This document shows positions 3,567 through 52,261 of a DNA stretch of 64,000 nt, one piece after another. The position numbers and the translations under genes were made by a program. The notes under the pieces were generated by a model. That model had not been told where the DNA came from, did no database searches, and saw only the letters and a list, made by a program, of their open reading frames with translations. Each line of letters begins with the position of its first letter. Position 1 is the first letter of the stretch. The stretch is taken from positions 133,384-197,383 of the forward strand of contig WELA01003365.1 of assembly GCA_009602735.1 (NCBI GenBank). The letters are read 5' to 3'. This stretch comes from Mesotaenium endlicherianum. Lineage: Eukaryota.

Positions 3567-3660
<94 letters not shown>

Positions 3661-10638: not shown

Positions 10639-10704
10639 CAGGCCACCTCTCAGATGATGCTTTAAGAGCACGAGCTCATTCGACACAAGGGACATACAAT
10701 GCAC

Positions 10705-22279: not shown

Positions 22280-22596
22280 ATGGCGAAGTTGTTAGAGAAG
22301 GTTAAGCGGAAGTATGTGGCATATAAGAAGCCATAGAACGTAGGACTTGAGGAACATCTAGGAATTTTGAGCTCGAGTGAAGGCATTGCTGTTGAACGCC
22401 TTAAACCCACTCCGAAGATAGAAGTGTCTGTCACTATTACGCATGATAGAGGAAACATAACAGATGCAGAGTTTGCGAAGCTGGGAGAGAATCTAAAGCA
22501 GAATCATATTGGGAAAGGGCTTTTTGGCACGGAATCAGGAGGCACTTATTACCATGAACACGCGCAAGGTGTACTTCAGATTCATGCGAAGTCGGT
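22280..22596 (+). pseudogene. Replitron Rep transposase fragment 1 (RCR motif I and HUH motif II)
   Basis: ATG 22280, premature TAG 22334-22336, then EVSVTI (motif I) and GTESGGTYYHEHAQGVL (H-x-H-x-Q-G). Ends at TSD TCGGT. Confidence 0.85.
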
Positions 22597-24031
22597 TATA
22601 GTGATTTGAGTTATTATACATTAGTTTGCATATTAGTTTGCATATATTTTAAAGTTTTCAAATATATTTGGAGTAGTATTGTGTGGATTCAAGTGTGAAT
22701 AGGTACTCTAGTGACTTGGTTCATGTCCTTTGAACCTTCTAAGGCATTTTCGAAGTTAGAGGAAAGACCTAGAAGAACTCCACGTGGCAAAAGTAAAATG
22801 TGCCATTTTTAGGTCAAAAGGACATGTGTACATTATTCTAGAAAGAGGTGGCAAGTTTTGGGATGTGTTGGGTGCCAACACATCAACATACACCTTCCTA
22901 GAAATTACTTATGTAGCAAGGATATAAACAAGAGCTGGAACATAGAAAAACATTCCAGAATCACTCTTATACTTGCCAGAATCCAGGTTCACATTAACTT
23001 TCAAGAAGCCATCTCTTTTTCAAGAAGCTACCACTTGTGTTCAAAGATCCTTGTCTTGAATAGATAAAGTATTATATTTCACTAAGTACTTTATCTATCT
23101 GTTTCACTACAATGGTATCGGAGCTAGGCACTTTGGTAGCACAAGAAGATGGCCGATCCTCAAGACCAACAGCAAGCTTTCGAAGAAAGCCCTTCCTCTC
23201 CAAGAGACCCTCCTACAACGCCGATGGGAGAGCCCACTTGTAATGAATCAGTATATTAGTAGATATAATATTCATTTAAATATAATAGTTAATTAAGTTC
23301 AGCCTGCTGAACTTTAGTTAGTAGTTAGTCTGCTGAACTTTACATAATTATCAGTTTAATGATTCAGCCGGAAGCAGCAGGCTGAAGTCCATATAAGTCA
23401 GCTTGCTGACCCATTCTTTGACAGCCAGCTGACTTCCGTACTCGGTAGCAGCGAACTGCCTTGACATACACCTAAGTACGATATGCTAGATGAACGGCCA
23501 GATGACATCCCTATGATGGATGGCGATTCGGGATGATGGGAGATGGCGGTGGATTTGGTTAACCGAGGTCCTACCAACGTGGTTAACTCCCGGGTAGGCG
23601 GTGCCATCGCACTGACCGTTGAACAGTAAACTCATTCCATGTACATATGCTAGGCATTGCTCTCGAGTTCGGCATTCGGAAACGAGGCCAACTCTCTTGT
23701 ACAGCTTACTGAGAGAGATCTGAATCCAAGGCGAGAAGCCATTGATACGCACTGTCTTCTAACCTTGCTTATGTATGAGTTTACTGATTTGCATTATTGA
23801 TGCTAGTTTACTCGCATTTGACTTACGAGTATTATTCACTGCTAGTGTGTTGTCCTTTGCCGTTTAACCAGTTAACGGAAAATACCATAAAGATTACTTG
23901 CTGATATAAAGATCTTTATTAATTGTTAATCGCTTATTTGGTAAGTCGATTCATTTCAGTGGTATCGGAGCAGTTATCACAGTCTTCTTTGTATGGTAAG
24001 GACAAGGTCTCAAACTAGCAACTCCTGAGAC

Positions 24032-25483
24032 ATGGAGAACCAGGATAACGAGAATGTCGAAAACCAGGCAAAAAGCCATGTAGCGGAAACCCGTACCTAT
24101 TCTGAAACAGTAGCAGACACTGCAGCTAGAGAGGCTGCAGATGAGGCAACTACTATTGCCGCAGTCGCAGCACAGCAAGCTGAGGAGAAGAGAGCCAGAT
24201 TAGAAGTTGAACAAGTAGCAAAGGCCGCTGAAGATACAGAAAGGAGGGAAGGACAGCCAGCTGACGAGCGCACTGTTGAAGAACTTATGGCATCAAGGGC
24301 CAATGTTCTGAACCCACCTCCTGCTGTACAACTCAATGTACCCCTAGGTCAAATACGTGACCGGCTGAATGCGGCAGGAATTGCTGCTGCAGGAGCAAGA
24401 GGGATTGTTGAGGACACTACTCAGCGAGTAGATGCCAATGCTGCTGCTGCATTTGCTAATCTACCACCCCAAAATGTAGACTTGGGAGCATTGTTCGTTC
24501 AGATGCAGTCGCAAATGGCGACCATGTATCAGTCCCAGCAGGAGGACAAAAGAATCATAATGTCCCTACTCCGGGACAGAGACCAACTGGGGTCTCACAC
24601 CACTAGTGGTGGTGGCCGAGGGCCTAGTAAGCCCAAGCCGAAACCTCCTCAGGACTATGATTCTGAGGGAAACAGAAAATATTACCTGATCAAGTTTCTC
24701 GCGGATGTTGAGCAGTGGCTGGAGAACTACCCAGAACTGCAAGATCACGAGAAGGTCAAGCACATCGGTGCGCTACTAAAAGGCAGTGCCGCAGATTGGT
24801 GGCTTTACCGGAAAGGAGAGCGTAAGGCTCGGCAACTCGGTGACCCTACGTGGGTAGAGTTTGTTGAGAAGTTGCATGAGAAGTTTGATGTCATCAACCA
24901 GCAGGAGAAAGCTATCTATGCGATGATCTCCCTGACACTGAAGCAGACCACATCAGTTGCTGAGTTTGCTCAAAAGTTCCAGGAGAACATGATGAAACAG
25001 TCAGACTTGCCAGAACGGTATAGGATAGCATACTTCAGGTATGGCTTGAAATCCGAAGTCTCTGGCCATTTCGCTGAGAAAAAGTATGAGAAACTGGCTG
25101 ACTTGATCCAGGATGCTGACGCCTGGGATCAGCAGCAGTTCAATCACAAGCGCCACAGTAACGCTTTGGTGTCTAAGATTGTCAAAAAGCCCCACGGTTC
25201 CTACAATGCAATTGAAGGAGACCGGGCTGAGGATAATCAGGGTGACGAATATGAGTATGAGTACAATGCTATTCAGTCTATAGGTGGAGGTGGTTCCTCT
25301 CGAGGTGGCTATGGAAGGGGTGGTGGTAGAACTAAGCCGAGACCAGCCTCAGCAAAATCCACTTGCTACCATTGTCAGCAGAAAGGCCACTACAGAGAAA
25401 AGTGTCAGTCAAGCACCTGCCCAAGGTCGAGAGAAAAGACCAGCCTTTCAATGACAGCAACAGTCAGTAATGCAGTCTACTGA
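24032..25483 (+). CDS. gag: Gag of element B
   Basis: 483 aa; retrotransposon capsid-like LKGSAADWW..LKQTTSVAEF; CCHC knuckle CYHCQQKGHYREKC. Confidence 0.9.
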   Translation: MENQDNENVENQAKSHVAETRTYSETVADTAAREAADEATTIAAVAAQQAEEKRARLEVEQVAKAAEDTERREGQPADERTVEELMASRANVLNPPPAVQLNVPLGQIRDRLNAAGIAAAGARGIVEDTTQRVDANAAAAFANLPPQNVDLGALFVQMQSQMATMYQSQQEDKRIIMSLLRDRDQLGSHTTSGGGRGPSKPKPKPPQDYDSEGNRKYYLIKFLADVEQWLENYPELQDHEKVKHIGALLKGSAADWWLYRKGERKARQLGDPTWVEFVEKLHEKFDVINQQEKAIYAMISLTLKQTTSVAEFAQKFQENMMKQSDLPERYRIAYFRYGLKSEVSGHFAEKKYEKLADLIQDADAWDQQQFNHKRHSNALVSKIVKKPHGSYNAIEGDRAEDNQGDEYEYEYNAIQSIGGGGSSRGGYGRGGGRTKPRPASAKSTCYHCQQKGHYREKCQSSTCPRSREKTSLSMTATVSNAVY

Positions 25484-25684
25484 CTGTGAGGATGCTAGAG
25501 ATAGTGAGTCGTCACTAGCTGCCCTCGTAGCAGGTATTATGGGTCCTGCTGAATTGGATTCACTATGCATGCCTGACAAACAGATAAAGGAGACCATCAG
25601 CAATATAGACGTCCAGAGAGCGCACACTCTGGATGCTCTTGTTCCGCTTGATGTCCAACATTTCTTTGCTACATCAGAAGAACA

Positions 25685-28600
25685 ATGCGAAAGTCAGGAA
25701 AGACAGTCCCCCCTATATTACTGCATTGCATGATTGCAGGTAGGAAGGTGAGGGCATTTGTTGACGGAGGGGCGTCACATACTTTTATCCACAAGGACTT
25801 AGGTAAGCGGCTAAGGCTGCCTACTGTCACCCAAGGGAATAGAAAAATATTCCTTGGAGATGCCTCAAGTATCCCGGGAGGAGTTATAACCAAGCCTATT
25901 GAGGTCCAGTTAGGTTCTGGCATTGCAGTTCTAACTGAAACGCTTACATTTGAGGTACTCAACACTGGCTTTTATGATCTCGTGCTAGGCAGGTCCTGGC
26001 TTAATAGACATCAAGCTGAAGTGTGTTGGAGCAGAGGTACAGTTAAAGTGAGAGGAGCCAGTGATGGGCAGACTGACTTGGTACCCACCAGTGCTCTTCC
26101 TCTTGTCCTGTGTGGATGGCAAATGAAGGAAAAGAAGAGGCTTCCAGAAGGATGCAAGTTGCTGAATGTACTGGAGTTCCTCAAAAGCTGGAACCCGAGG
26201 GAAGACAGAATGTTCTGTCTGCTGCTAAGAGAGGTACCTCCTCAACCTGAAGAAGTGGTGGAGAAAAAGGTAAGCCCTCCGGAACACCCTACTGCTGCAA
26301 CCATTGTTGCTCAGTACACGGATGTGTTTAATATGCCTCCAGGACTACCCCCTAAGCGGGAAGTAGATCATCTCATTGATTTATTACCTGGGAGTCAGCC
26401 ACCTTGGCAACGCACGTATGGCTTGTCTTATGTGGAGAGCGAGGAGTTGAAAACACAGATTGCAGAGCTTGAAGAAAATGGTTATATTTCTCCTAATGAA
26501 TCACCTTACGGCGCACCCATCCTATTTGTTAAGAAAAAGGATGGCAGTATGCGGATGTGTGTGGATTACAGAGCCCTGAACAGAATTACAGTAAAGAACA
26601 AGTATGCTTTACCCAGAATCGAGGACTTGCTTGATACCGTGTCTGGTGCTAAGGTGTTCAGTAAGATAGATCTCAAGAGTGGTTATCATCAAATCAGAAT
26701 TGCTGAGGGGGGTGGACACAAGACTGCTTTCCGCACACGTTATGGACACTATGAGTTCAACGTGATGCCATTTGGATTGACTAATGCTCCTGCTACCTTC
26801 AGGGGTACTATGAATGACATTTTCAGACCGTATTTGGATAAGTTTGTGCAAGTTTTCCTGGATGATATTTTAATTTTCTCTAAGGATGAAGCTCAGCACA
26901 CTGAACACTTAAAGAAAGTCCTGGACACTCTGCGGAAAAATCACTTGTACGCTAAAATGAGCAAGTGTGATTTCTTTAAGGAAAGTATTGAATTCTTAGG
27001 CCACGTTGTCAGTAAGGAGGGCATCAGTGTGGATCCTAAGAAAGTCCAGACCATAAGGGACTGGCCAGTACCACAGTCTGTCTCTGAAGTTAGATCCTTC
27101 CTCGGGTTGGCTAACTACTATAGGAGATTTATTGAGAATTATTCCACAAAGGCCAGTAAACTGACTGACCTTACTAAGAAAGACATCGGGTATGTGTGGG
27201 GGGAAGAGCAGCAGGCTGCCTTCCAGACCCTTAAAGATGCCCTTTGTTCTGCCCCAGTGCTAGCCGTGTATGACCCCAGCAAACCGGTGCAGGTGGTTAC
27301 TGATGCCTCTGATTTTGCCATGGGTGCTATTTTGTTGCAGCCTGCTGACAAAACCACAAAGGATGGTAAGGTACGGCAGGAGTGGCATCCTGTGTTGTAC
27401 GAGTCTATGAAATTTACTCCAGCGGAGATTAATTACTCAGTGCATGATAAAGAGCTGCTAGCCATCATTCATGTACTCAAACAGTGGATAATATACTTAC
27501 ATGGTAAAGCTTTTAAGGTGATTACAGATCATCTAGCTCTGACCCACTTTCTGAAGAAGTCCAAGCTGTCGAGGAGAGAGAACCGCTGGAGCCAGATGCT
27601 GGAGCAGTTCCAAGTCCGGATCGACTACAAACCAGGGAAGTTGAATCCTGCTGATGCACTCTCTAGAAGACCTGACTTGCAAGAAAGGAACTTTAGTCAG
27701 CATGCTGTAGATAAAGTCCTGTGTGCACTCACTTCACTAAAGGTGAAAAAGTCCTTCTTAGAACAACTTAGGAAAGCCTACCTTTCTGACCCGACATTTG
27801 AGCCCAGCCCCACTACTGGTGTGTGTCGTGCTACTGCACTCGGGTATAAGCTGAAGGGAGGGGTCTGGGTGACTGAAACCACTTCAGGCAGGCTGAAGCT
27901 GGTCATTCCTAATAACTTGGAAATAAGGTCTCTCTTACTGAGTCAAGCTCATGACAGTCTCCTGGGTGGACATTTGGGGCAGGCCAAAACTGTTGGCAAA
28001 CTGGCAAAACATTATCATTGGAAGGGGTTACCCCGGGAGGTCTTGAAATATGTCAAGTCCTGTGACCAGTGTCAGAGAAATAAGTCTCGGCACACACCAC
28101 CCGGAGGTCTCTTGCAACCACTGCCCATCCCAGCTGGACGCTGGGAAACTATATCCATGGACTGGGTGGTCACAGTGCCACGAACTGCTAATGGGCATGA
28201 TTCGATATTGGTAGTCGTGGATAAACTGACAAAAATGGTCATTTTCATCCCCACAACTGTCAAAGGAACTGCACTCGAAACAGCGAGACAGTTTTACAAC
28301 CATGTAGTATGCCAAGATGGGCTACCTTCTAATATCATCTCAGACAGAAACTTAAAATTCACCTCTAAGTTCTGGAGAGCTTTAATGGGGTTAATGGGAG
28401 TCAAACAGCTGCTCAGCACAGCAAACCACCCTCAGACTGATGGGCAGACTGAAAGAAGTAATTGAGTTCTGCAGGAGGTGCTGAGAGCATATATTAACCA
28501 AAAACAAGATAATTGGGATGACCTGTTGCCTCAAATTCAGTTTGCGGTCAACTGTGCGGTGCACGCGTCAACGGGCAAGACTCCTTTTGAACTCAGCCAA

Positions 28601-29254
28601 GGTAGAGTTTCTAAGTCTCCTTCAGATGTACTGGGGAAGTCTTTAACTTGCCCTGAAGGGATTGACAACCCGGTCTCCCTCCAGTTAACGCAGGAGTTTG
28701 CTGACACCCTGTTAGAAGTCCAACGAAACCTGCACAAGGTCCAAGAAAACCAACAAAAATACGCTAATCAACACCTTCGGGAACTGATATTTTCCAAGGA
28801 GGATTTAGTCAAACTGCATTCTTAGCACCTGTACCTCCCTGGTGTGGTCAAGAAAAAGCTTGGCCCTGTCTGGGTCAGTCCATATTCGGTGGTACGTCGT
28901 ATTGGTCAGAATGCTTACAAACTGAACATGTCAGCTGAATACAAGGGTCACCCGGTCTTTAATGTCGCCTTCCTGGAACCATACATCAAAGGTGATACAC
29001 TGTTCAGAGGTCGGTTACCTGTCCAACCGGGACCGGTCCCCGCTGTCCGGGACGGCGACCCTGAGGAATATGAGGTCGATGAGATTTTAGACGCTCGCTC
29101 GGTCCGTCGATCGTCTAAATATGTCATGAAATACCTCATTCGATGGAAGGGTTACGATGCCTCTGGGGACACTTGGGAATTTAAGGACCACTTGACCAAT
29201 GCCAAAGGGGCGTTGACACGGTTCCACCTTCGGGCCGCTGGAGTCCCTCCATAA
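25685..29254 (+). pseudogene. pol: Pol of element B (PR-RT-RH-IN-chromodomain) with two in-frame stops
   Basis: [31 protein letters not shown], chromodomain YEVDEILD..YLIRWKGY..TWE. Stops at 28463-28465 and 28823-28825, same frame throughout. Confidence 0.93.
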
Positions 29255-29520
29255 CTGTCATTTCAGTTGACAAGGGAAGGTGACAGGCGATCCTGTCTCC
29301 ATTTAAGTTGGAGGGGAAAATATATGACAGTTAGTGAGCGAGAGCGATAAAAACACACTCATACGTTTATGTGTAGCGCATCGCAACTACGTCAACTTTT
29401 AGCAATCATCCTGTAAGGTAAACAGCAGCAAATGCACTATACTAATACTAACATACTTCCTGCAATCCCTATGACAAAGGTCCATACCCTACTAACTTGT
29501 GCCCTGGTTACATGCACAAG

Positions 29521-31197
29521 ATGGCGCCCACCACACAAAAGCAGGACAGAAAGCGCAAGGCGGAAGAAGCTTGGAGGACAATGGAGCAATACCAGAAGGA
29601 GCTGGCGGCGACGTCCCTCACCAGGAGAGAACAGGAAAGGCTCCGCAGACAACAAGAGGCGGCAGAAGAGGCACAGAGGAAGAAGGATCAGGAAGCGGAA
29701 AACCTCAGAAAGGCTGAGGAGGAGAGACAGAAGAAACAGCAAGAAGAAGCGGCAGCGGCAGAAGAGGAGAAAAGAAAAAAGATTGAAGCGGACAGACAGA
29801 AGAGCTTGGCCACTTACAGGTATACTGTGGTGGGTGGCCAAAACTTCGATAACCTGAAGGAAGCATTGCTGGCAGCCCAGGAGATCAACAGGCTGGAACA
29901 GACAACACTGCTACAGAGGGAAGGAGCTGCAGCAATGGATAGGTACATCGAGACACACACTGGTGTGGTCCTCTACGAAGATTATGCCAAGATGGTGGGC
30001 TATACAACAGAGCAGGCCCGGTATTTCGCAGATGATTCAGAGGACAAGCCGGTCCCCATACCGGGAATAGTGGGAGATCAGAGACTCATCCGGATGGTGA
30101 GCATGCGGCCCGATAGCTTTAAGGATACGGTATTCTACCTCACACTCCTGCCAGCTTACAATGAAGTTGAGAGAAGGAGCTGGGAGTACTTGGCCAGGGA
30201 AGCAGGACAGCAGATGTTCTCTCCCCACTGGTTCCCGTGTAAACTGAGGAAGGCTGAGCACGGACCCCAGTACTACCAGCAGCCAACAGACTGGAGGTGG
30301 ATGACCGTCACAAATAAGAAGCAGGAGTGTGACCGAGCCCAACCGGATGACTTCCACTATGGCCTAGACGGCTATCTCATCCTACCACCTCACATTGCCC
30401 CTTGGGACCCCAGGCTGAATGGATGCCTGAGCAATATGAATGCAGAGACCAAGGAACATAGGAGGAGGGGAAGAGAGTACTTCTCTAAGGGAAAGCATGC
30501 CTTTGTCAAATGGGCAAAGAATGCAGGCCGGATAGATATCAGTAGGCTGAAGGCCAAGCAACCTCCAGCGCGCCCTAAGAAAGGGAGGTCGGTAGACTAC
30601 TCCATGTCTACTAGGGAGCAGGACGACTTAGTGGACGAGACCCCTACTCTCTCCGAGGAGGAGGATAAGGAGGATGAGGAAGAGGAACAAGGCAGAGGAG
30701 AAGCATCAGCAGCAGGTACTCAAGATACCCAGGGGCAAACAGGGGCGACTCCTAAAGAACCACAATCAGGTATTTGGAATGTGATCCCCGTTATGGCGAC
30801 AACTGGACCCCGCGCTCGCTCCCCCAGCCCACCTGCCCAAGCAGGGGAAGAAGTTGATCTGACTGTATCGGGCAGCAGACACAGGCAGAAATCCCAAGAG
30901 GACAGGGGTGCCAGGAGAGCGACACGCGGGTGGGCCAGAGGTATGCCAGCCTCCCCCTCTGCTCAGGGGCATGTACCTCTAGCCAATGTATTTCAGCATC
31001 CTACTGGAATGCCTGTCTATGTGGGCATCAACACCCAAGTGGTTGAAGAGCAGGCTACCATCCTTCGTTCTCCTCGAGGTCCAACTTTAGAGCAAACCGG
31101 GTTCTTTAGAAGGCCAGAGGGCTGTCCAGATCTAGGTCCAGATTTCCGTCTCCTGATCCTGAAGCCCAAGGAACAACCCCTTAAGGTGACAGGCTGA
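29521..31197 (+). CDS. unknown 558-aa ORF3 of element B (charged coiled-coil N-terminus, Trp/Tyr/Cys/His-rich core, disordered C-terminus)
   Basis: Uninterrupted sense ORF between the pol stop and the PPT/3' LTR; no family recognised. Confidence 0.75.
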   Translation: MAPTTQKQDRKRKAEEAWRTMEQYQKELAATSLTRREQERLRRQQEAAEEAQRKKDQEAENLRKAEEERQKKQQEEAAAAEEEKRKKIEADRQKSLATYRYTVVGGQNFDNLKEALLAAQEINRLEQTTLLQREGAAAMDRYIETHTGVVLYEDYAKMVGYTTEQARYFADDSEDKPVPIPGIVGDQRLIRMVSMRPDSFKDTVFYLTLLPAYNEVERRSWEYLAREAGQQMFSPHWFPCKLRKAEHGPQYYQQPTDWRWMTVTNKKQECDRAQPDDFHYGLDGYLILPPHIAPWDPRLNGCLSNMNAETKEHRRRGREYFSKGKHAFVKWAKNAGRIDISRLKAKQPPARPKKGRSVDYSMSTREQDDLVDETPTLSEEEDKEDEEEEQGRGEASAAGTQDTQGQTGATPKEPQSGIWNVIPVMATTGPRARSPSPPAQAGEEVDLTVSGSRHRQKSQEDRGARRATRGWARGMPASPSAQGHVPLANVFQHPTGMPVYVGINTQVVEEQATILRSPRGPTLEQTGFFRRPEGCPDLGPDFRLLILKPKEQPLKVTG

Positions 31198-32022
31198 AAA
31201 GACAGTCAGTAAGGGAGGCTGGTCAGGGTCAGTTCCTTTATTTAAGGCTTTTGCAGTTTAATATTGTCGAGGTGACAACAAGTTAAGTTGGAGGGATTGT
31301 AATGAATCAGTATATTAGTAGATATAATATTCATTGAAATATAATAGTTAATTAAGTTCAGCCTGCTGAACTTTAGTTAGTAGTCAGTCTGCTGGACTTT
31401 ACATAATTATCAGTTTAATGATTCAGCCGGAAGAAGCAAGCTGAAGTCCATATAAGTCAGCTTGCTGACCCATTCTTTGACAGCCAGCTGACTTCCGTAC
31501 TCGGTAGCAGCGAACTGCCTTGATATGCATCTAAGTGCGATATGCTAGATGAATAGCCAGATGACATCCCTATGATGGATGGCGATTCGGGATGATGGGA
31601 GATGGCGGTGGATTTGGTTAACCGAGGTCCTACCAACGTGGTTAACTCCCGGGTAGGCGGTGCCATCGCACTGACCGTTGAACAGTAAACTCATTCCATG
31701 TACATATGCTAGGCATTGCTCTCGAGTTCGGCATTCGGAAACGAGGCCAACTCTCTTGTACAGCTTACTGAGAGAGATCTGAATCCAAGGCGAGAAGCCA
31801 TTGATACGCACTGTCTTCTAACCTTGCTTATGTATGAGTTTACTGATTTGCATTATTGATGCTAGTTTACTCGCATTTGACTTACGAGTATTATTCACTG
31901 CTAGTGTATTGTCCTTTGCCGTTTAACCAGTTAACGGAAATTACCATAAAGATTACTTGCTGATATAAAGATCTTTATTAATTGTTAATCGCTTATTTGG
32001 TAAGTCGATTCATTTCACCACT

Positions 32023-39775: not shown

Positions 39776-39780
39776 CAGGC

Positions 39781-42700
39781 ATCCTCTCTGAAGTCTTCGG
39801 GCTTCTAGTAGAGAGACTTGGGGCTGGTCCAAGATGGGGGTTGGCGGCATGGAAGCGCTTCCACTTTCTCTGAACTTTGTCAAGGTAGTGCGTCGCCACC
39901 CAACTATTCTCCGAATCTGGATATCCTTTCCACTTGATCAAGTATTGCTGCTGTCTCCTGAAATTTCTCATAGCCACTATGTCTTCCACTTCGTACTCCA
40001 AATGATCATCCACTATTGTTGGGGCTGGTGGGGTTGTCACACGTCCTGGGAACTTGTTGTCGGGTTGCACATATGGCTTGAAGAGGGAAGCGTGGAATAC
40101 GGGGTCGATGTGCATAGTCTGGGGAAGTTCTAGCTTGAAAGCAACGGGGTTGACTTGCTGGATAATCTTGAAGGGTCCCAAATACTTGGGAGAGAACTTG
40201 CTGCCGGCAGGCCTATTGTTCAGGGAAATATTCTTGGATGATAGTAACACGTTGTCACCCGCTCTGTACGTAATTTCTCTTCTGGATCTGTTTGCCACTC
40301 TTGCTTGAGCATCTTGTGCGTGTTGTAGAGCTTTCTTCGNTGCTTTCTTGGCTGCTGCAAGGGCTGCTTCTAATGTCTCCAAAAAATCTGTGGCTGCAGG
40401 TACTTCATGAAGGCCAGCCGTGAAGCTCGGCGGCGTGGTTGGATGGAAGCCATAGTTGAGGAAGAATAGGGACTCTTGGGTAGAGGCTCGTTGTGTTGTT
40501 GTAGGCAAACTCCAGGGGTGTCAAGTACATGTCCCAATCTTGCTCCAGAGTAGACACGTAGGCCTTTAGAGAGGTCTTTAGGGTACGATTCATACGCTCG
40601 GTTTGCCCATCTAATTACGGGTGGTAGGCAGTGGACATATCCAGCGATGTACCCAAGTTCTTGGGGAGATTTTCCCAAAAATGGCTTGTGAATCTTGGAT
40701 CTCTATCCGACACAATTCTTGATGGTAGTCCATGGAGTCGGAAGATGTTGTCAAAGATGAGTCTTGCAAGTTGTGGTGCTGTAGCCTTAGTCGTCGTGGG
40801 AATAAAATGAGCCATCTTGGTAAGTCTGTCCACCACCGTGAGTATTGCATTATGGCCTCGAGGTGTCACGGGCAAGTCCACGATAAGGTCCATTGAGATG
40901 TTCGTCCATTGTCTTTCGGGGATTGGTAGTGGTTGGAGGAGTCCTCCCGCCTTTTGCGATGATGGCTTGATTCTTTGGCATGTGTCACAGCTCCTGCAGT
41001 ANGTAGTGTTCCTTGACTTGCTTAGACATGCCTGGCCAGCAATAAGTACTGGCTAGAACGCCCGTGGTTCTTAGGATTCCGAAGTGTCCTCCAAGAGGGT
41101 TGTCTTGTGCTTCTCGTAGAAGCAAGAGCCAGAGGTCTAAGTCATTAGGAACACATCTCTGGCCCGTGTCTTGCCTCACCCAATAATTGCCTTCTTGCTT
41201 CTTGTATGGGTCCAAGGCTGCTTCTCCGTTCTTGTAGTAAGGGTCTCTTTCATAGGCGGCTGAAAATCGAGCTTCCAGATCTGTCTTCAGGGATACCATC
41301 ACTGCATTTAATTGCAGTCTTGAGAGGGGGTCAGCCGGGTTTGTCTTGCCGGGCTGGTACTGAATCGTGATGTTGTATTGTTGCAAGTATCCGCTCCATC
41401 TTGCTTGTCTCCTTGAGAGATACGGCTGCGTTTGGAGGTGCTTTAACGCCTCGTGGTCCGTGGTGACCAGTACTTTGCGTCCTTCAACGTAGCAGCGCCA
41501 AACCTTCAAGGCATGTACAATCGCCAATGCCTCTCGCTCCGTGGTTGTATAATTTTGCTCGGCTGGATTTAGCTTCCTTGACTCGTAGGCGATGGGCTGC
41601 AGTCCCTTGCCTTGGTCTTGAAGCAGGATTGCTCCTATTGCATAGGAAGATGCATCGGTGATGACGTGGAAGGGCCAATCTGGGTTTGGACTTGGGAGTG
41701 TGAGCACCGGGGATGTGGTCAATCTTCGCTTTAACTCTTGAAATGCCTCTTCCTCTTTCTCGGTCCATGTATATAGCCTGTCCTTCTTGAGTAGATCTGT
41801 CAGGGGGGCTGCTATGTGCGAGAAGCCTTGGATGAATTTTCTGTACCAATTGGCAAATCCCAAGAATGACTGGAGTTCTTTCTTGGTCGTGGGGGTTGGC
41901 CATTCCTCCACCACCGTGGTCTTCTTGGGGTCTATCTTGATGCCATCAGCAGTCACGTGGAGACCTAGGAACTCCACTTCTTGTTTGGCAAACTCGCACT
42001 TTGACTCCTTCGCAAATAGCTTGTTTATCTTCAATACTTCAAGGACTTCTTTCAAGTGTCTCGCTTGCTCTTCAAGGGTCTTGCTGTAGATAAGGATGTC
42101 ATGGATGAATACCACCACAAATCTGTCCAACATGGGCTGAAATATGGTGTTCATCATAGTCATGAAAGTTGCTGGCGCGTTGGTGAGTCCCAATGGCAGG
42201 ACCATGAACTCAAAATGTCCATATCTTGTCCTGAATGGCGTCTTCTCTATGTCCGGTTCTGCGATGCGAATCTGGTGGTAGCCGCTCCGTAAATCTTCGT
42301 AAAGTACTTGGCTCCAACCAGCCGGTCCATGAGCTCATCCATGCGCTGCAGCGGGTATTGATTCTTGATGGTGATCTTGTTGAGGGCGCGATAGTCCACA
42401 CACATCCTCAAAGTACCATCTTTCTTCTTGACAAATAGCACCGGGGCTCCAAATGGTGACTTGCTAGGTCGAATGAAGCCATGCTCCAGTAGCTCCTTGA
42501 TTTGCTTCTTGACTTCGTCTAGCTCCGTGTATGACATTTTGAACGTAGGCCAAGAGATGGGCTTGCTTCCGGGCTCCAACTCTATCTTGTGGTCTACGAA
42601 TCTTTTGGGGGGTAGGCCCTTGGGCAATTCCGGGGAGAACACTTCTTTGTAGTCCTCTAAGACTTCTTGTATCTCCTTGGGAACGGGGCTGCCTTCTTGA

Positions 42701-44576
42701 CTCTCGATGTCTTTCTTGATGTCTTTTGGCGTGATCAAGGCCAAAAGAAGCTCGTGTCCCTTCCTCACAAGTCTCTTGAGTTGGAGGGCGGACAATAGTA
42801 TCTCGTGTGCCGGCTTCTCGATGTCTTGGGTCTGGATATTCTGGATTGCGCGCAAAATACAGATTCTTGAAATGATGTCATTCTTGATCTTGATTGTATC
42901 GTCTCTCCAATCAACTTGGGGGTTGTGCTTGGTCAACCAAGGCGTCCCAAGGATGACGTCGTACTTGCCCAATTGCATGGGGGAAAACACTACTCTATCC
43001 TTGAAGGACTTGATAGAGAGTGCCAAGGGGTACGTCTTCTTGGAAGGGGTAGTATAGGAGAATCCATCGGGCATCAGAATCTCCTCGTCGTGGTCAAGAG
43101 TTTGCATAGTAATATCGTGCTTGGTGGCAAAATTTGCAGCAATAAATTTGCCTTGAGCTCCGCTATCCACCAAGATGTGGACCTTCTCTCCTCCAAGGTA
43201 ACTTCTCAAACTCATTGGGGCTGGAACGTCGTCTTCAACGGGAGTCTCCACCTCACTTGGATTGTTGTCTTCCCTTGGGGTGGTAGGCTCCTAGCCTACC
43301 GGCGCTGTCCGTTTTTTGACAACTTTTTGGGGCATGACAGTGCACGATGGCCCTTTTCCTTGCAATAAAAGCATAGTCCAGCCGTCATGAGAGCTTCTTT
43401 TTCAGCCGGGGAGAGTCTTGCGTTCACTCCTTGCTGGTTTCTTGCATCATAAGTGTCATTGGAGGGTCTTCCACTCTTCCGGGCAGCCGCGGGGTCCCTT
43501 TTAATAACTCCGATTTCCATGGGTGTGGGTCCAGATTCGGATGTGGAAGAGGCTTCGTACACCCGCGTCGCCGGAATCCGTGAAGATGGACGCACGGAGT
43601 GCTTGAAATCCAAGGTATGCACCTTTTGGGCCACTTCAATGGTCCTTGAGAAGTCCGTCAAGTCGCGTAATTCCACTTCGTCTGTCACCTTGGGCTTGAG
43701 GCCAAAGATGGAGCGGTCAATCTTCTCCTCGAGAGACATGTTGGGGATTTCAAGAGTGAGGGCGTGAAATCTGGATGTATACTCTTGAACGGACGTCGTT
43801 TGCTTGAGATGGTGGAGCTTTCCTCGGGCAATCTTCTCCGCATTGATGGGCATGAATTGCTTCTTGAGGGCCTCACGAAAATCTGCCCATCTTGCATATG
43901 ATGGTGGGGGCTCTTGGCCGAGCATGGGGTGCGCCATAGCTTGATATATAGCCGCTTGATAGTTACGCCACCATGATGTTGCTGCTCCTCTAAGTAAGGT
44001 AACGGCAAAGGGAACGTAGTCCTCCTCGGGTACTTCAAGGAATGCGAGGTACGTCTCCACTTGGTAGAGCCATAAATTCAGGTTGGCACCTTTCCCGGGG
44101 TTGAAAGTGTCGGGTTTGCCGGGCTTGATGAGTTTCCTTGCTCTCGTTGGCTCTTGTGGAGGCGCTTAAGCCGGGGCTGGATTTTGAGCATTGCTCGCAA
44201 TAGGGGCAACCATGGCAGCCATAGCTTCTCTTGACGCTTGCACGGTTGCTTCATAGGTGGCCAAGCCCACTTGGTTGTGGACGGTCATTAGGAAGGCTGC
44301 CCACTCATTTGCGGGAACTCCTTGTGGTGGGGTCAACTTTGCTATAGCGGCTGCCACGGGATTTGACGGTGCTCCTCCTTGTGGTGCTTCTTGTTGTTGC
44401 AGATTTCCTTGAGTAGGCCCTCCCATTGGCGCTGGAGGAGGGTGTACTCCTCCTTGTGGTGCTTCTTGTTGTTGCAGATTTTCTTGAGTGGGCTCTCCCA
44501 TCGGCGCTGGAGGAGGGTGTCTTGGAGAGGAAGGGCTTCCTTCGAAAGCTTGCTGTTGGTCTTGAGGTTCGGCCAT
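39781..44576 (-). pseudogene. gag-pol of element A2 with stops and frameshifts; chromodomain integrase
   Basis: Fragments 44597-44166, 44060-43296 (gag), 43251-42247 (PR/RT), 42205-40985 (RT with FIHDIL, RNase H), 40893-39781 (integrase; YEVEDIV..YLIKWKGY). Confidence 0.92.
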
Positions 44577-45349
44577 CTTTTTGTGTGAAAGGGGCAAAGT
44601 GCCCTAGTGGAAGCGTAGTGACTCACAAGGAAAGGAACTAGTTGCAATCATACTAAAGAGTGCAGCGGCATATCACTAACAAAGCTTAGGAAAAATACTC
44701 AACATTTTGAGTAGCAAGAAACTGCTCACAAATGATGTAGGATGAAAGGCCTTGTCATTACAAACCCGTAGACATTTACAGAAGTGAAAACTGATAAGAA
44801 ACAAAGAAGTTATGCCTTTTTATAATTTTCTGCCTAAGTGCTCCCCACTAGGAGGAAGCTACGGATTTTATTAAGTGTTCGTCAAATCGTCCCTTCCAGA
44901 ATATTCGTGAGTAAGCCAGATCAGTCTAATCTGACGTGTCGGGCCGAATTGACGTCCACATACATGCATCGACATTACTAGAATATTCTATCTTAGACGC
45001 GCTAGGCTAAACCGAAACTTCTTGGTAAATCGACCTAGTCGGCACTCCGCGTCAGCCGAACTTACGTGAAGGTTCGAGTTCATTCTAACGGGCCAGNTGT
45101 GAAGGTTTGAGTTCATTCTAACGGGCCAGATCGCTCGACGCTGTCGGTCAATCCGACGGTCGCGCTCACCGCGAATTAAGGACAGTCGTCAACCGACCTC
45201 AAAACTAATTAAACTTCGGAAATCCATAACTCTCTCAATACTTGACCAAATTCGATGAACTTTATATCAAAATGACCACAAAAATGCACTCTACACTACT
45301 ATACAATCAAAACATACTTTCATGATACTCAAAAATGCACTTCATAAAC

Positions 45350-48300
45350 CTATGACCTTACATCATCCCCCTTCTCAAGATGCGACGTCCTCGACGCATT
45401 CTGCAGATAACGTCTCAACTTACTCTTACAATGAGTCAAGTTGGCCTCTGGCTCCCAAGTGTTGTCGTCCGCATGGTAGCCTTTCCACTTGACCAGATAC
45501 TCTTGGACAACTCGTTGACCTCGCTTGACTCGTCGATCGTCGACAATCGCCTCCACTTCATACTGCAATACATCATCGATCTCGACCGGTGGTGGCGGNG
45601 CAATACATCATCGATCTCGATCGGTGGTGGCGGTGTAGGTAGTCGTCTAGGATGTCCTTTATTCGGGTCAACGTATGGTCGCAAACAACTAACATGCAAC
45701 ACATCATGGATACGCCATCCTGAAGGAAGTTCCAACTTGTAGGACACTAGATTCACCTGCTTGAGCACCACAAAGGGACCTGTAAACCGTGCCCGCAATT
45801 TCCTCTTGCCTGTGAAAGGTAGGTTCTCTGTACTTTGTCGCCCACATAGAATGTCACTTCCCTCCTGTGCTTGTTAGCATGCTTGACCTGCTCCTCCTGT
45901 GCCTTCCGAATACACGTCTTCGCCATATCCCAAGTCTTGGCCATCTGTTCCATAAAAGCTTGTGTAGTAGGAACCTGAGTCTCCTTGGCCTTCTCCAACA
46001 AGATGTTCCCTGGATGATATACTTCTCTCCCATAAACCATAGCGAATGGTGACTGCTTGGTCGATCCCTGCATGCTGTTGTTGTAGGCAAACTTCAGTCC
46101 TGGCAACTTCTTGTCCCACTCTGAAGGGTCCTCCATTGTGAAACTCCTGAGCACCTCTTGCAGAGTTCTGTTGAGCCTCTCACTCTGCCCGTCTGTCTGA
46201 GGATGATAGGAAGTGCTCATACTCAGCTTGGTCCCCATCAAAGTAAACAATGACCGCCAAAAGTTGCTAGTAAACCTTGGATCCCGATCTGAAACAATCA
46301 CCTTCGGCAACCCATGTAGCCTAAAAATATGATCAAAGAATAGCCGTGCCACATCTGCTGCCGTAGAAGTCTCCTTCATGGGAATGAAGTGAGCCATCTT
46401 GCTGAGTCTGTCAGACACTACCCATACTGCATCGTGCCCTTGACCACTGACTGGTAACGATGTGATGAAGTCCATAGCAATCTGCTCCCAAGGATACTCT
46501 GGAATAGGCAGGGGCCGCAATGTACCTCCCTTCTTTTGATTTGGTGTCTTGTTTCTCTGGCACGCATCGCAACTCCTGATCCACTCCTCGATGTCCTTGT
46601 CCATATTTCTCCAGTAGTATTCCCGCTTCAGCACGCTTGCCGTCTTCTCGCTTCCAAAGTGTCCAGCATATAAGCAGTCATGATGCTCCGCAAGTAGTAA
46701 GTCTCGTAGCTCCTTGATGTCAGGTACCACCACTCTCTTGGAATCACCATAATACCATATGCCGTCCTTCTTCTGCATACTCGAGTTGGACTCAGCTGCT
46801 CCACCATCAACGAACTCTGGGTCCTCCTCATAACCTCTCTGAAGCTTCTTCTTGAAGTCCATATTTTCCTTAATGACTGAAACAGCTGCAAGGTCACACC
46901 TCTTGGATAAAGCGTGTGCAGGGTTGATCTTCCCAGGTAAGTACTCAATCTTGTGGTCAAACTGTTGCAGAAACTCCATCCACCTTGCTTGTCTTGGTGT
47001 CAACGTTGGCTGCGTCATAAACTTCTCCAAGCTCTTGTGGTCGGTCTTGATGAACACCTTCCGTCCGTCCACATAACATCGCCAAATCCTCAAAGCCTGG
47101 ATAATAGCCAACATCTCTCGCTCGTGTGCTGCATAGTTCTGCTCCGCAGGACTCAACTTCCTGCTCTCATATGCCACAGGCTGTAATCCTTTGCCCTGGT
47201 CCTGGAGAAAAATGGCCCCCACTGCGAAATTTGATGCGTCCGTGATGATGGTGAAAGGAATCTCTGGACTGGCAATTGCTAACACAGGTGCCTGTGTTAA
47301 CAGCTCTTTAATCTTCTCGAAGGCTTGCTGCTCCTTGTCACCCCATAGCCACTTCTCCTGCTTCTTCAACATGTCCGTGAGCGGTGCACACACCTTGGCA
47401 TATCCTCTAATGAAACGTCGGTAATAATTCGCCATGCCGAGGAAACTCCTGAGTTGATGAATATCAGCAGGTACAGGCCAATCTCTGACTGCTTGCACCT
47501 TCTTCTGCTCCACCTTGACTCCTTCAGCTCCCACTACATGTCCAAGAAATTCGACTTCATTGAGACAGAAGTCGCACTTGCTCATCTTCCCATACAGCTT
47601 CTGATCTCTCAAGACCTCCAACACCTTCCTCAGATGTCCCACATGCTCTTCCAAGGTCTTCCAAGGTCTTCCAAGGTGCGTATTTCCAGGAAATACGCAC
47701 TTGAACTCCTCCAACAGCGCCTTAATTTGGGCAGGCATCTCAGCAGGCTCCTTCTCTTGAGCAGTTGGGCTCTGCTCCTTTTGAGCAAGGGGATCAGACA
47801 CCACTACTTGCTCCTCCAGCGATGTACATTCGCCCAGGCTGTTGAGATTCACGCTTGCTCCATCTGATGACCTGGCCAGGGCCACCGAAGCAAGGTACAT
47901 CTCCTTCACCTGATTCGCCCTGCATAGCTTCTTAACTTGCAGGCTCGACAGAAGACAGTTACTTGTGGTCGTATCTACCTCCACCTGTTTCGCTGTCTCC
48001 ATTCGACCATCACGCCCTTGGACTTTCACTTGTCCTGTGCTCCAGTGCACTTGAGGGTTGGCTTTTCTTAGCCATGGTCGGCCCAATATCACCTCATGGT
48101 GACCCAACTCTGCCTGCTCCATAACTTCAGTACTCTGGTGCCCCGCTACTTCCACGTGAATAGCTTCCGTAGGTGCACCACACTTGAGTCTCTGCCCATT
48201 TGCCAAAATTGCCTCCTTAGGCTCATAATGCTTCTGCACAGGGATTCGCCACTCTTTCACCAGCTTCTTGTGCACAAAGTTTGCACTTGCGCCACTGTCG

Positions 48301-48470
48301 ACCATACACTTCGCATTGTTGCCGTCGACCACTCCTTCCACGATGATAGGCTTGTCAACGTCTCGTCCTTTGCTTCTCGGCAGGCTCCTGGGGATAACCT
48401 CCTTGTGAGTTCTCGTCTTCACGCCAGTAGACACCCCAGAACGACTTACTGGCGTCCTCCTTTTTCCTGT
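45350..48470 (-). pseudogene. pol: Pol of element E: protease, RT remnant, RNase H, integrase, chromodomain
   Basis: MVDSGASAN; jumps from EEFKCVFP to KTLEEH so the RT core is missing; [15 protein letters not shown]; frameshifted tail with [20 protein letters not shown]. Confidence 0.9.
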
Positions 48471-49477
48471 TGTTGAGGTTGCTTCGCCTTCACATGACAA
48501 TCTCGAGCCAGATGTCCAAGCTTGCCGCAACTATAGCAAGGTCCTCTCGGCTTGAAATTCTCCTGCTTGCGCTGGTACTGCACAAGTCCCAACTCCATGG
48601 GTACTGGACCTTGAACACTCGTGTTTGGCGCTTGAGATCCAAAGTGTCGATATCCTCCAAAGTTGTGGCTGCCCCACTGCCTCTGACTATACTTCACAGC
48701 GTCGACCCTTGTTGCCAATGTCATCATTTCTCCAAGACTGGTAGCGTCCTTGAGCGCCACTTCCTTGGCCACAGTTGGCTTGAGTCCCCTCTTGAACTTG
48801 TCCATCATCTCTGACTCGTGCATGGATGGACATTGAAGCACCAGCTCGTTGAAGCGCGAAACATACTCCTGAACGCTTCCTCGCTGACGAAGGCGCACCA
48901 ATAGATCTCGAGCGGTAGCCTCGGGCACAATAGGTTGAAATTGCCTCTTCAAGCCTTCAAATAGCTGATCAACAGTAGCAGGAACTCCAGACAGCTGCTC
49001 TTCTCGTTCATACCAAGCTCCAGCACTCTTCTGCAGCAAAGTTATGACAAAGGCAACTTGCCTGTCGGGCGTGAGTGCAGAGTACTCCATGAATTTCCTC
49101 ACTCCAAAAATCCATTGATGAATAGGCGGCGATCCACGCTCTCCAGTATAAACTTCAGGCTTAGGCGCACGCACTCTTGATGCGGGTGGAATAACTGGTT
49201 GCACCACTGGGTTAACATGAATTGGTGGTACAACGGGTGCAGGTGCCGAACTCGTCGAAGCGGCGTTCCCCATAACAACTCGCACCATTCTCTCCACCTC
49301 CGCGCGCATATTTTGTTGAAACTGGGTGTAGACTTCTTCTCCAATTGCATTTGCCATTTGCCTTAGCATTGCCTGCATTTCTTGTTGCTCTCTAGTCATC
49401 GTTGGTGCTGCCTGTTGCCCCGCGCGCTCAACATGCTCGACATGTTCGCCTCCTCCAGCTGCCGGCTGCGACTCCAT
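48446..49477 (-). CDS. gag: Gag of element E
   Basis: 343 aa; LRQRGSVQEY, GPVPMELG, CYSCGKLGHLARDC. Confidence 0.9.
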   Translation of the reverse strand: MESQPAAGGGEHVEHVERAGQQAAPTMTREQQEMQAMLRQMANAIGEEVYTQFQQNMRAEVERMVRVVMGNAASTSSAPAPVVPPIHVNPVVQPVIPPASRVRAPKPEVYTGERGSPPIHQWIFGVRKFMEYSALTPDRQVAFVITLLQKSAGAWYEREEQLSGVPATVDQLFEGLKRQFQPIVPEATARDLLVRLRQRGSVQEYVSRFNELVLQCPSMHESEMMDKFKRGLKPTVAKEVALKDATSLGEMMTLATRVDAVKYSQRQWGSHNFGGYRHFGSQAPNTSVQGPVPMELGLVQYQRKQENFKPRGPCYSCGKLGHLARDCHVKAKQPQQQEKGGRQ

Positions 49478-50888
49478 AATATAATATGCAAACTAGCCCT
49501 GCTCCGATACCAGATGAAAGGGGCAAAGTGCCCTAGTGGAAGCGTAGTGACTCACGAGGAAAGGAACTAGTTGCCATCATACTAGAGAGTGCAGCGGCAT
49601 ATCACTAACAAAGCTTAGGAAAATTACTCAACATTTTGAGTAGCAAGAAACTGCTCACAAATGATGTAGGATGAAAGGCCTTGTCATTACAAACCCGTAG
49701 AAATTTACAGAAGTGAAAACTGATAAGAAACAAAGAAGTTATGCCTTTTTATAATTTTCTGCCTAAGTGCTCCCCTCTAAGAGGAAGCTACGGATTTTCC
49801 TAAGTGTTCGTCAAATCGTCCCTTCCAGAATATTCGTGAGTAAGCCAGATCAGTCTAATCTGACGTGTCGGGCCGATTTGACGTCCACATACATGCATCG
49901 ACATTACTAGAATATTCTATCTTAGACGCGCTAGGCTAAACCGAAACTTCTAGGTAAATCGACCTAGTCGGCACTCCGCGTCAGCCGAACTTACGTGAAG
50001 GTTCGAGTTCATTCTAACGGGCCAGATCGCTCGACGCTGTCGGTCAATCCGACGGTCGCGCTCACCGCGAATTAAGGACAGTCGTCAACCGACCTNGGTC
50101 GCGCTCACCGCGAATAAAGGACAGTCGTCAATCGACCTCAAAACTAATTAAACTTCGGAAATCCCTAACTCTCTCAATACTTGACCAAATTCGATGAACT
50201 TTATATCAAAATGACCACAAAAATGCACTCTACATGAATGTACAATCAAAACATAATTTTATGAAACTCAAATATGCCCTTTATAAACCTATGACCTTAC
50301 ATTGTGCTACCAAAGTGCCTAGCTCCGATACCACTGTAGTGAAACAGATAGATGAAGTACTTAGTGAAATATAATACTTTATCTATTCAAGACAAGGATC
50401 TCTGAACACAAGTGGTAGCTTCTTGAAAGAGATGGCTTCTTGAAAGTTAATATATGTCTGGATTTTGGCAAGTACAAGAGTGATTCTTCCATGTCTTTCT
50501 ATGTTCTAGCTCTTGTTTTATATACTTGCTACAAAAGTAATTTCTAGGAAGGTGTATGTTGATGTGTTGGCACCCAACACATCCCAAAATTTGCCACCTC
50601 TTTCTAGAATAATGTACACATGTCCTTTTGACCTAAAAATGGCATATTTGACTTTTGCCACGTGGAGTTAATCTAGGTCTTTCCTCTAACTTCGAAAATG
50701 CCTTAGAAGGTTCAAAGGACATGAACCAAGTCACTAGAGTACCTATTCACACTTGAATCCACACAATACTACTCCAAATATATTTGAAAACATTGAAACA
50801 TATGCAAACTAATATATAATAACTCAAATCACTACATAAAGTATTATATTTCACTAAGTACTTTATCTATCTGTTTCACTACATCGGT

Positions 50889-51168
50889 TGCCGTGGTCAT
50901 AAAAGAGCTGAAGAGATTTATGAGGTGGAGTGCAGGGCCTTGGGGTAGGACGACTGCGGAGGGCAAAGGGATTTGGGTGTTGACAAGGCTACTCTTCAAA
51001 AAGGTCTGCACACCTTCGTGGGTATGTGTGGTTACCGTACCAAAGATTTGCATATAAATGCTAATTTCCTACTTTTGAGGAAAGGCGTCACTGACGAGAT
51101 GATGGCGAAAGGTGGTGATATGTATCTGGCCCTTGGTGATGTAAAGGACAAAAATCGGGTAGGAATTG
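50889..51168 (+). pseudogene. Replitron Rep transposase fragment 2 (catalytic tyrosine motif III)
   Basis: Continues in frame from fragment 1 (KSV-AVVIKELKRFMRW), one frameshift, then KGLHTFVGMCGYRTKD (YxxK) and G..Y..LG..KDKNRV. Confidence 0.85.
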
Positions 51169-51915
51169 TGTAATGAATCAGTATATTAGTGGATATAATA
51201 TTCCTTTAAATATAATAGTTAAATAAGTTCAGCCCGCTGAACTCTAGTTAATAATCAGTCTGCTGGACTTCATATCTAATATCAGTTTAATGACTCGGCC
51301 GAAAGCAGCAGGCTGAAGTCAACTTAAGTCAGCTTGCTGACACATTCTTTGACAGCCAGCTCACTTCCGTACCTGGTAGCAGCGAACTGCCTTGATATGC
51401 ATCTAAGTACGACACGATAGATGAATGGCCAGATGACATCCCTATGATGGATGGCTATTCGGGATGATGGGAGATGGCGGTGGATTTGGTTAACCGAGGT
51501 CCTACCAACGTGGTTAACTCCCGGGTAGGCGGTGCCATCGCACTGACCGTTGAACAGTAAACTCATTCCATGTACATATGCTAGGCATTGCTCTCGAGTT
51601 CGGCATTCGGAAACGAGGCCAACTCTCTTGTACAGCTTACTGAGAGAGATCTGAATCCAAGGCGAGAAGCCATTGATACGCACTGTCTTCTAACCTTGCT
51701 TATGTATGAGTTTACTGATTTGCATTATTGATGCTAGTTTATTCGCATTTGACTTACGAGTATTATTCACTGCTAGTGTGTTGTCCTTTGCCGTTAAAAC
51801 AGTTAACGAAAAATACCATAAAGATTACTTGCTGATATAAAGATCTTNGATTACTTGCTGATATAATGATCTTTATTAATTGTTAATCGCCTATTTGGTA
51901 AGTCGATTCATTTCA
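51169..51915 (+). mobile_element. family-B solo LTR inserted directly in the Replitron Rep gene
   Basis: TG..CA termini, near-identical to the B LTRs, TSD AATTG at 51164-51168 and 51916-51920. Confidence 0.95.
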
Positions 51916-51920
51916 AATTG

Positions 51921-52261
51921 ACATTAACTCGTTGTATAAGAGAGTTCGACATTACTGGGTATTCAAATTGAGGAAGGATAGGGAGCGTTATCCCAACACA
52001 ACTTCTGTCCTGTTTCACATGATTAAATCTGGGAGGTACTACCCTCGAACCCATCTCACAACACAAGGTGGCAGGGGAGTGAATCTCGCCAAAGATGAGG
52101 CCATGTTTATCATGATGACAAGGCCGCAGGACACCAGGATAGAAGATACTTACGTGGTTTTTTTGAATTATGATGGGCCTGTTCCTGACATGAGGGGAAG
52201 GAGGTATTACCATTTACGAGGTGCTGTGCTAGGTGAGAATTGCGAGAGGCAGTGCCTGTGA
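51921..52261 (+). pseudogene. Replitron Rep transposase fragment 3 (C-terminal domain)
   Basis: In frame with fragment 2 after removing the solo LTR and one TSD (NRVGI-DINSLYKRV..LFHMIKSGRYYP..GRGV..P..VVF); stop at 52259-52261. Confidence 0.8.

Follow-up and report, generated by a model that had tools for sequence, protein, structure and literature searches.

Do three short open reading frames (ORFs) scattered across 30 kb belong to one gene, and if they do, to what kind of element? The question arises in Mesotaenium endlicherianum, in a stretch of 64,000 nt from contig WELA01003365.1 (assembly GCA_009602735.1, positions 133,384 to 197,383, forward strand). This whole stretch is referred to here as the window, and its own numbering is used throughout. 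A first-pass annotation proposed that the three ORFs form the hidden transposase gene of a Replitron. The analysis described here puts the probability at roughly 95% that they are a single broken Replitron copy, interrupted by seven long terminal repeat (LTR) retrotransposon insertions. With the same degree of confidence, the locus can be described as a dead copy of a compact (~1.44 kb) Replitron family, unreported in the literature consulted, whose helicase-less, single-tyrosine (Y1) transposase gene with an HUQ motif has been cut in three by LTR retrotransposons.

One gene in three pieces

The pieces meet at target site duplications (TSDs). TCGGT stands at 22592-22596 and again at 50884-50888, and AATTG stands at 51164-51168 and again at 51916-51920. 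Both are exact 5-bp matches, and both adjoin LTR ends (TA..CA, a decayed TG..CA, and TG..CA). Joined, the pieces measure 317 + 280 + 341 = 938 nt, which with one unknown base added gives 312 codons and a stop. The joined frame has one internal stop (22334-22336), and it is opened by a single unknown base inserted anywhere within 50946-51056. The lost base is placed near 50990-50996 because of homology and because the aligned second piece of a relative, described below, begins at 50996. Thus, the join at the TSDs, the gene of ~312 codons and the dead copy with one stop and one frameshift, all proposed in the first-pass annotation, hold up. The frameshift exists as claimed, with its site near 50995, at the edge of the interval first given (50930-50990).

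An uninterrupted relative provides a direct view of the join. Public contigs and reads were aligned to both regions of the window (four runs per region), as a stand-in for a genome-wide tBLASTn search. One contig in run X5 (3314 nt) and one in run X6 (1390 nt), matched between the two regions by length and depth, contain the three pieces in order; piece 1 runs to 22594, piece 2 begins at 50996 and piece 3 at 51984. Across the first joint (window 22594 to 50996) the relative has 110 letters and the joined window 109; across the second (51168 to 51984) each has 63, and this joint is also seen in a 446-nt contig of run X1. Therefore, the pieces join as proposed, and the window copy is short of one base. 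The relative is ~83-88% identical to the window copy and has G at 22334, and therefore no premature stop there. Genomic paralogues that do not join the segments had been named in advance as grounds for giving up the proposal; the relative that was found does join them.

Could the join nevertheless be a coincidence between three unrelated ORFs? The lack of any database match for piece 1 on its own would fit such a view, but single contigs of X5 and X6 hold the three pieces in order with base-exact spacing, and homology is continuous through both joins. A chance join has a very small probability and is rejected on the evidence of the uninterrupted relative.

The Replitron is multi-copy in the genome, given that several contigs over the gene region in run X1 differ from the window by 11-17%. 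Copy numbers are rough, because summed contig depth does not equal copy number; where short copies are put at hundreds here, and gene-bearing ones at several, the figures are approximate. The contigs of the relative have a depth of 71.4 (X5) and 14.5 (X6), compared with 2.1 and 2.4 for contigs identical to unique window DNA; in run X1 the relative is at single-copy depth. The excess in X5 and X6 may be due to transcription or chromatin enrichment.

With a stop, a frameshift and two interruptions, the window copy is, judged from its sequence, inactive. No RNA reads fell on transposase pieces 2 and 3 in run X9 (~6% of the run read), and none on piece 1 in run X12 (~13% of the run read). The LTRs and the left-end unit of the Replitron did have RNA reads in runs X9/X12.

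A Replitron transposase without a helicase

What did the gene encode? Motif I (SUTU) reads S-V-T-I at residues 50-53 and aligns with motif I of a Replitron on metagenome contig L002. The H-A-Q of motif II and a Glu upstream of it align with the H-I-Q and Glu of the same Replitron; hence, motif II is of the HUQ rather than the HUH type. HUQ is the form typical for Replitrons in the description given by PMC10288648. Motif III, GYxxK with a single Tyr (51030-51044), aligns with outside Replitron homologues. Piece 3 matches the Pfam family Replitron_C (PF21860) with E 9e-8 and 32.9 bits, exceeding the cut-off of 27. For Replitron_HUH (PF21859), scored on the separate pieces only, piece 1 has no score and piece 2, in its second frame, matches positions 83-127 of 128 (E 0.025, 15.4 bits). 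This match is under the cut-off of 28.5 and falls at the expected position. The joined frame ends at 52261 without a Walker A motif, and the Pfam scans returned no helicase family. The first-pass annotation had already recognized motif I (VSVTI), the single-Tyr motif III, the C-terminal domain, the lack of a helicase and the Replitron identity, the last of which is now supported by the Replitron_C match and by alignment of the joined frame to L002. Its HUH motif II has to be amended, since H-A-Q at 22559-22567 is HUQ.

Homology extends over most of the joined protein. A metagenome scan with homologues of piece 3 returned one locus, the intron-bearing Replitron of L002. Aligned to the spliced L002 protein, the joined frame (with X at the breaks) is identical at 77 of 261 positions (30%, E 2e-29) over residues 39-288, which span motifs I-III and domain 2 and are collinear across both joins. 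A second protein, KAI5064566.1 of Adiantum capillus-veneris, is likewise collinear over residues 98-284 (60/188 identical, E 1e-22). Piece 1 compared singly with one L002 Replitron exon gives 12/37 identities (E 9e-4). A profile built from three outside homologues, covering residues 98-287 only, gives the joined frame 119 bits, whereas the highest score among 500 shuffles is 7.8. When the same profile was run on 1898 six-frame pieces of the window, the three highest scores went to piece 3, with 64.8 bits, and to piece 2 in its two frames, with 29.6 and 5.7 bits. A search with piece 3 among 1.84 billion proteins gave four matches, three of them with Replitron domains.

Other searches returned nothing. 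None of four pieces matched NCBIfam, and word-based protein searches with pieces 3 and 1 yielded 61 and 111 candidates, none passing. For the Rep fold of Replitrons (a sheet of five strands with three helices), folded fragments, as distinct from the joined protein, reached a predicted local distance difference test score of 50 and 54, with no PDB match at E 0.001. The L002 locus itself (L002:1562-3435) encodes a Replitron transposase and is predicted to contain four introns; its exons were spliced in this analysis.

A nest of LTR retrotransposons

Across the 30 kb, boundaries could be set for seven LTR insertions, and exact 5-bp TSDs flank all seven (Table 1). The four coding elements (A1, B1, A2 and C) are all Ty3/gypsy, with chromodomains in B1 and A2. 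The claim that the Replitron is the oldest element of the nest is confirmed by the nesting order, because all seven insertions lie within it. Among 40 of 115 rows, at least 12 of 237 nt (5.1%) have a substitution that only the window Replitron copy carries, and this exceeds the per-lineage LTR divergences (0.9-3.7%).

Did the Replitron also seed the nest, as the first-pass annotation had it? For this claim, and for this claim only, there is an alternative with even odds, namely that the nest has nothing to do with the Replitron and is ordinary LTR-into-LTR nesting after one chance insertion. Just two of the seven insertions struck Replitron DNA directly, and five struck other LTR elements; moreover, nesting and same-family insertion are described as common in Ty3/gypsy elements (PMC6911290). 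On the other hand, the relative seems to bear a family B LTR elsewhere, at a site that corresponds roughly to 52119 (in coordinates of the X5 contig), and B1 and A2 have chromodomains, which have been proposed to steer integration to heterochromatin (PMC3350952).

The elements have some history of their own. A1 has lost the end of its integrase and most of its 3' LTR, the remnant of which is identical to the end of the 5' LTR at 51/51 sites; this deletion preceded the insertion of A2 into the 56-nt remnant (37161-37169 and 50837-50883). The link of the insert at 34641-35892 to family B consists of its end sequences only, because BLAST at E 1e-5 does not match it to the B1 LTR. Within the gag-pol of A1, at 33093-33328, a 128-nt insert (33147-33274) sits between two copies of a 54-nt stretch. 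The terminal word of this insert resembles the LTR end of element C, and the insert has no BLAST match to that LTR.

Ends of the element and a non-autonomous neighbor

Where does the element end? The extent first assigned, 22280-52261, is right for the coding pieces and too short for the element, which reaches from ~22046 to ~52528. Restored, it measures ~1439 bp. Both termini are inferred positions, the left one to within ~ +/-10 nt. Short direct repeats, here AGTAAGG at 22070, 22110 and 52522, lie at or close to the two ends, as in Replitrons. The right hairpin has the stem word of the left hairpin, with the arms in swapped order. This word, CCCCTCAC, occurs nine times in the 64 kb, always in 22079-22103 or 52475-53240; 2.37 copies are expected, and nine were reached in 0/100 shuffles. 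A 23-nt motif of the left end occurs twice in the window (0/100 shuffles). Depth in run X1 is ~61, the single-copy level, up to 22028, and climbs to 19,000-43,000 over 22052-22097. Other copies have in common ~24 nt upstream of the first AGTAAGG and diverge beyond. The left unit also precedes the gene elsewhere: an 845-nt X1 contig runs across 22058-22289, and the joint from 22116 to 22280 is found in runs X1 and X6. The hairpin-and-repeat ends, which are common to the neighboring copy described next, likely mark the sites that the enzyme would bind and cut.

The neighbor is a non-coding copy of 568 bp that starts, head to tail, 13 nt past the right AGTAAGG. Over 52547-52625 its left unit is 86% similar to the left end of the Replitron, over 53025-53100 its right end is 75% similar to the right end, and its interior is unrelated. 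Because relatives with the left unit and interior of this copy occur in X5 and X6 contigs, it is a non-autonomous member of the family. Depth is back to the single-copy level past 53107. The copy has no Pfam or Rfam match, Rfam has none across 52200-53400, and a tRNA search found none.

Two further observations concern the ends. In run X1, three contigs step back 73-79 nt inside the left unit (22056-22137), indicating tandem left ends elsewhere in the genome. At 53225-53250, the stem word occurs for the ninth time, on the minus strand and in a left-unit-like context at single-copy depth; this is possibly a decayed third element end.

Several observations weigh against the Replitron reading. 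First, piece 1 alone has no match in Pfam, NCBIfam, PDB sequences or Atlas, and it goes unscored by the three-homologue profile because the N-terminal columns of that profile were dropped. Second, the top match in the protein search with piece 3 is an unrelated fibronectin-repeat phosphatase, and Atlas offered bacterial DDE-transposase look-alikes for this piece (0.91-0.93), which were rejected for low recognition and fewer than 170 shared features. Third, the splice model of L002 was picked under GT-AG and motif constraints, and two models fit. Fourth, AGTAAGG on its own is weak, because the window contains 15 copies of it, counting both strands. Fifth, of the four terminal stretches only 52536-52628 folds better than shuffles (z -3.74); the other three do not (z -0.60, -1.83 and 0.46). 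Finally, element C has an LTR divergence of 0.074 yet lies inside A2 (0.033), so that the divergences are out of nesting order and the LTR clock has to be regarded as noisy.

The folding result also bears on a different view of the ends. The hairpin-repeat units could be a separate, high-copy miniature element that flanks the Replitron gene, whose true ends would then lie elsewhere. The summed depth of the left unit is ~100x that of the gene, some contigs diverge directly past 22116, and three end words occur 0 times in the published Replitron consensus file, as might be expected of a separate element. However, the left unit also lies ahead of the gene in further copies, which are 11-17% diverged; the right hairpin has the same stem word, the same pair of ends bounds the 568-bp neighbor, and depth drops to the single-copy level immediately beyond the two outer ends. 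A separate miniature element is improbable in light of these observations.

A much less probable view takes the gene as a Rep (replication initiator) fragment from an endogenous CRESS-DNA virus (a virus with circular, single-stranded DNA that encodes a Rep) or pCRESS plasmid, with the hairpin as viral origin. Y1 and HUQ motifs are common to circoviruses, and PMC10288648 describes a weak link between Replitrons and CRESS Reps. A hairpin with flanking direct repeats does look like a rolling-circle origin, but the gene has no helicase motif, including the superfamily 3 (SF3) helicase of these systems, and domain 2 passes Replitron_C. Nor does either hairpin contain the nonamer NANTATTAC, which we take to be the viral origin pattern; its sole match lies within the coding region. 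Scans of viral contigs gave one 12-residue match (L001) and three blanks, piece 1 has no plasmid match, and the element is multi-copy with non-autonomous derivatives. All told, a viral or plasmid origin has a probability of only a few percent at most.

Comparison with known systems

A Replitron remains the best description of the element, and the likeness to Replitrons (PF21859, PF21860) as presented in PMC10288648 is extensive. It includes a Y1 Rep with SUTU, Glu, HUQ and GYxxK, an adjacent helical domain 2, the absence of a helicase, short direct repeats close to the ends, multiple copies and non-autonomous derivatives. In size, the element is close to Replitron-1_sTam (1329 bp; PMC10288648, Dataset S1). 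There are also differences. The window element is just ~30% identical to the Replitron relatives compared. In the window family, two direct repeats flank the left hairpin and both ends have one stem word, whereas Replitron-1 has one right-end hairpin according to the text of PMC10288648; in addition, conserved sequence continues ~24 nt past the left repeat. The same paper lists one zygnematophyte transcript, its Dataset S1 has no zygnematophyte genomic consensus, and Replitrons are reported there as absent from hornworts. The first-pass annotation called Replitrons a green-lineage group. Green-lineage Replitrons do exist, but PMC10288648 also describes Replitrons in stramenopiles and cryptophytes. 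A literature search turned up no report of this family or of Replitrons in zygnematophyte genomes.

Other systems resemble parts of the locus. Circoviruses such as PCV2 are alike in Y1 Rep and HUQ, and in the plasmid pMV158, with its RepB, two 7-bp direct repeats lie next to the nick hairpin, like the left end in the window (PMC10288648). In contrast to these systems, the window element is without an SF3 helicase, no capsid gene was seen, the hairpin loops are without the nonamer, and the element is integrated and multi-copy. Helitrons and IS91 are HUH transposons with hairpins near their ends and copy-and-paste movement; however, they have Y2 enzymes and Helitrons a fused helicase (PMC10288648), whereas the window gene has a single Tyr, and neither a Y2 motif nor a superfamily 1B helicase was seen in the joined frame. 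A literature search on Helitron tandem arrays found nothing. Finally, nested clusters of plant Ty3/gypsy elements (chromoviruses) are alike in TG..CA LTRs, 5-bp TSDs, same-family nesting, solo LTRs and chromodomains (PMC6911290), the sole oddity here being a Replitron as the outermost host.

Proposed mechanism

How would such an element move? An intact enzyme would likely bind the hairpin-and-repeat ends, nick single-stranded DNA via its single tyrosine and copy the element to new sites. By analogy with the Replitron family and HUH chemistry (PMC10288648), the Glu, His and Gln would hold a metal ion and the Tyr of GYxxK would attack the DNA. The enzyme would likely be multimeric, with multimers giving a second Tyr, and host replication would supply the single strands (PMC10288648). 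Movement would be copy-and-paste, as assumed for the family. The anatomy of the ends suggests that the stem word and the repeats could serve as the binding and nicking sites. The same enzyme may have acted in trans to mobilize many short copies, and one of these now lies 13 nt from the right end. After silencing of the Replitron copy, chromodomain Ty3/gypsy elements likely piled in.

A more detailed version is tentative, and we consider it more doubtful than not. It holds that the left end is a rolling-circle origin like those of plasmids and viruses, that a third repeat behind a hairpin with the same stem closes the right end, that one stem word is recognized at both ends, that hundreds of short copies are driven in this way, and that insertion occurs preferentially beside the element's own ends. 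Likeness to the pMV158 nick locus has been raised as speculation in PMC10288648. If this version is true, the origin-like left end would offer a model, at the level of sequence, for how Replitrons work, in a lineage without a curated genomic family.

Implications

What does the locus offer? First, it provides a compact, intronless Replitron family in which the end motifs are well conserved; PMC10288648 counts circular intermediates, terminal sequences and structure among the unknowns of Replitrons. Second, autonomous-type and non-autonomous copies stand side by side, and variation among many short copies can reveal which bases matter. Third, genes split like this transposase are missed by ORF-level annotation. 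The dead, nested state of the copy is ordinary genome history; the ends of the element and the adjacent short copy, which went unnoticed in the first-pass annotation, are the more useful part of the finding.

Table 1. Features of the Replitron locus and of the elements nested in it (window positions)
Feature	Position	Strand	Details
Left end of Replitron	22046..22136	+	conserved from ~ATGT (22046); AGTAAGG at 22070-22076 and 22110-22116 flank a hairpin with 8-bp stem (22079-22103)
Transposase piece 1	22280..22596	+	ATG; premature stop 22334-22336; motif I 22424-22441; putative metal-ligand Glu 22532-22534; motif II H-A-Q 22559-22567
Ty3/gypsy element A1, including all nested in it	22597..50883	+	TSD TCGGT; primer-binding site; Pfam gag, protease, reverse transcriptase, RNase H, integrase
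Chromodomain Ty3/gypsy element B1, inside A1	23239..32017	+	TSD CCACT; LTR pair Kimura two-parameter (K2P) distance 0.018
Solo-LTR-like insert, inside A1	34641..35892	+	TSD GCATG; ends resemble family B
Chromodomain Ty3/gypsy element A2 (family of A1), in A1 3' LTR remnant	37170..50836	-	TSD TAAAG; LTR pair K2P 0.033
Family B solo LTR, inside A2	38544..39775	+	TSD CAGGC; holds a 670-nt N gap
Ty3/gypsy element C, inside A2	44586..50301	-	TSD TTGTG; LTR pair 92.4% (BLAST)
Transposase piece 2	50889..51168	+	1-nt loss near 50995; motif III GYxxK 51030-51044, Tyr 51033-51035
Family B solo LTR, in transposase gene	51169..51915	+	TSD AATTG; 91.6% to B1 LTR; missing from the relative's contig
Transposase piece 3	51921..52261	+	helical domain 2 and stop
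Right end of Replitron	52473..52528	+	hairpin with 10-bp stem (52473-52504), then AGTAAGG 52522-52528
Non-autonomous copy, 568 bp	52542..53109	+	left unit 52542-52625; right hairpin 53057-53084; degenerate repeat TAACGG

Surrounding DNA

About 90 nt to the left of the Replitron, at 21186-21957, lies a 772-bp foldback element that resembles a miniature inverted-repeat transposable element, with 122-bp arms (84%) and TTAA at both outer ends. On the other side, ~1.8 kb from the right edge of the nest, is an HY5-type bZIP gene (~54930-56190). Over 52 bZIP residues, 48-49 match in Sphagnum, 48 in Spirogloea, 47 in Marchantia and Coleochaete and 42 in the hornwort Nothoceros. Two signature positions occur together in 9 of the 97 matches, Spirogloea among them, and in a tree the window gene falls in no supported group. 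By these comparisons, the host is a green-lineage species outside the seed plants, probably a zygnematophyte alga. Further along, exons at 57770-60420 (minus strand) resemble those of an RNA-binding protein of the U1A/U2B'' type, the second domain being divergent, and exons at 62640-63694 (plus strand) those of a REF/SRPP-like protein; in neither case was there a matching Pfam family among the ORFs scanned. At the far left, positions 1-17200 are mostly 55-65% GC, compared with 35-41% GC in 18000-22000, and contain CA microsatellites, N gaps and exon fragments that resemble those of a pseudouridine synthase and an ankyrin/FYVE protein.

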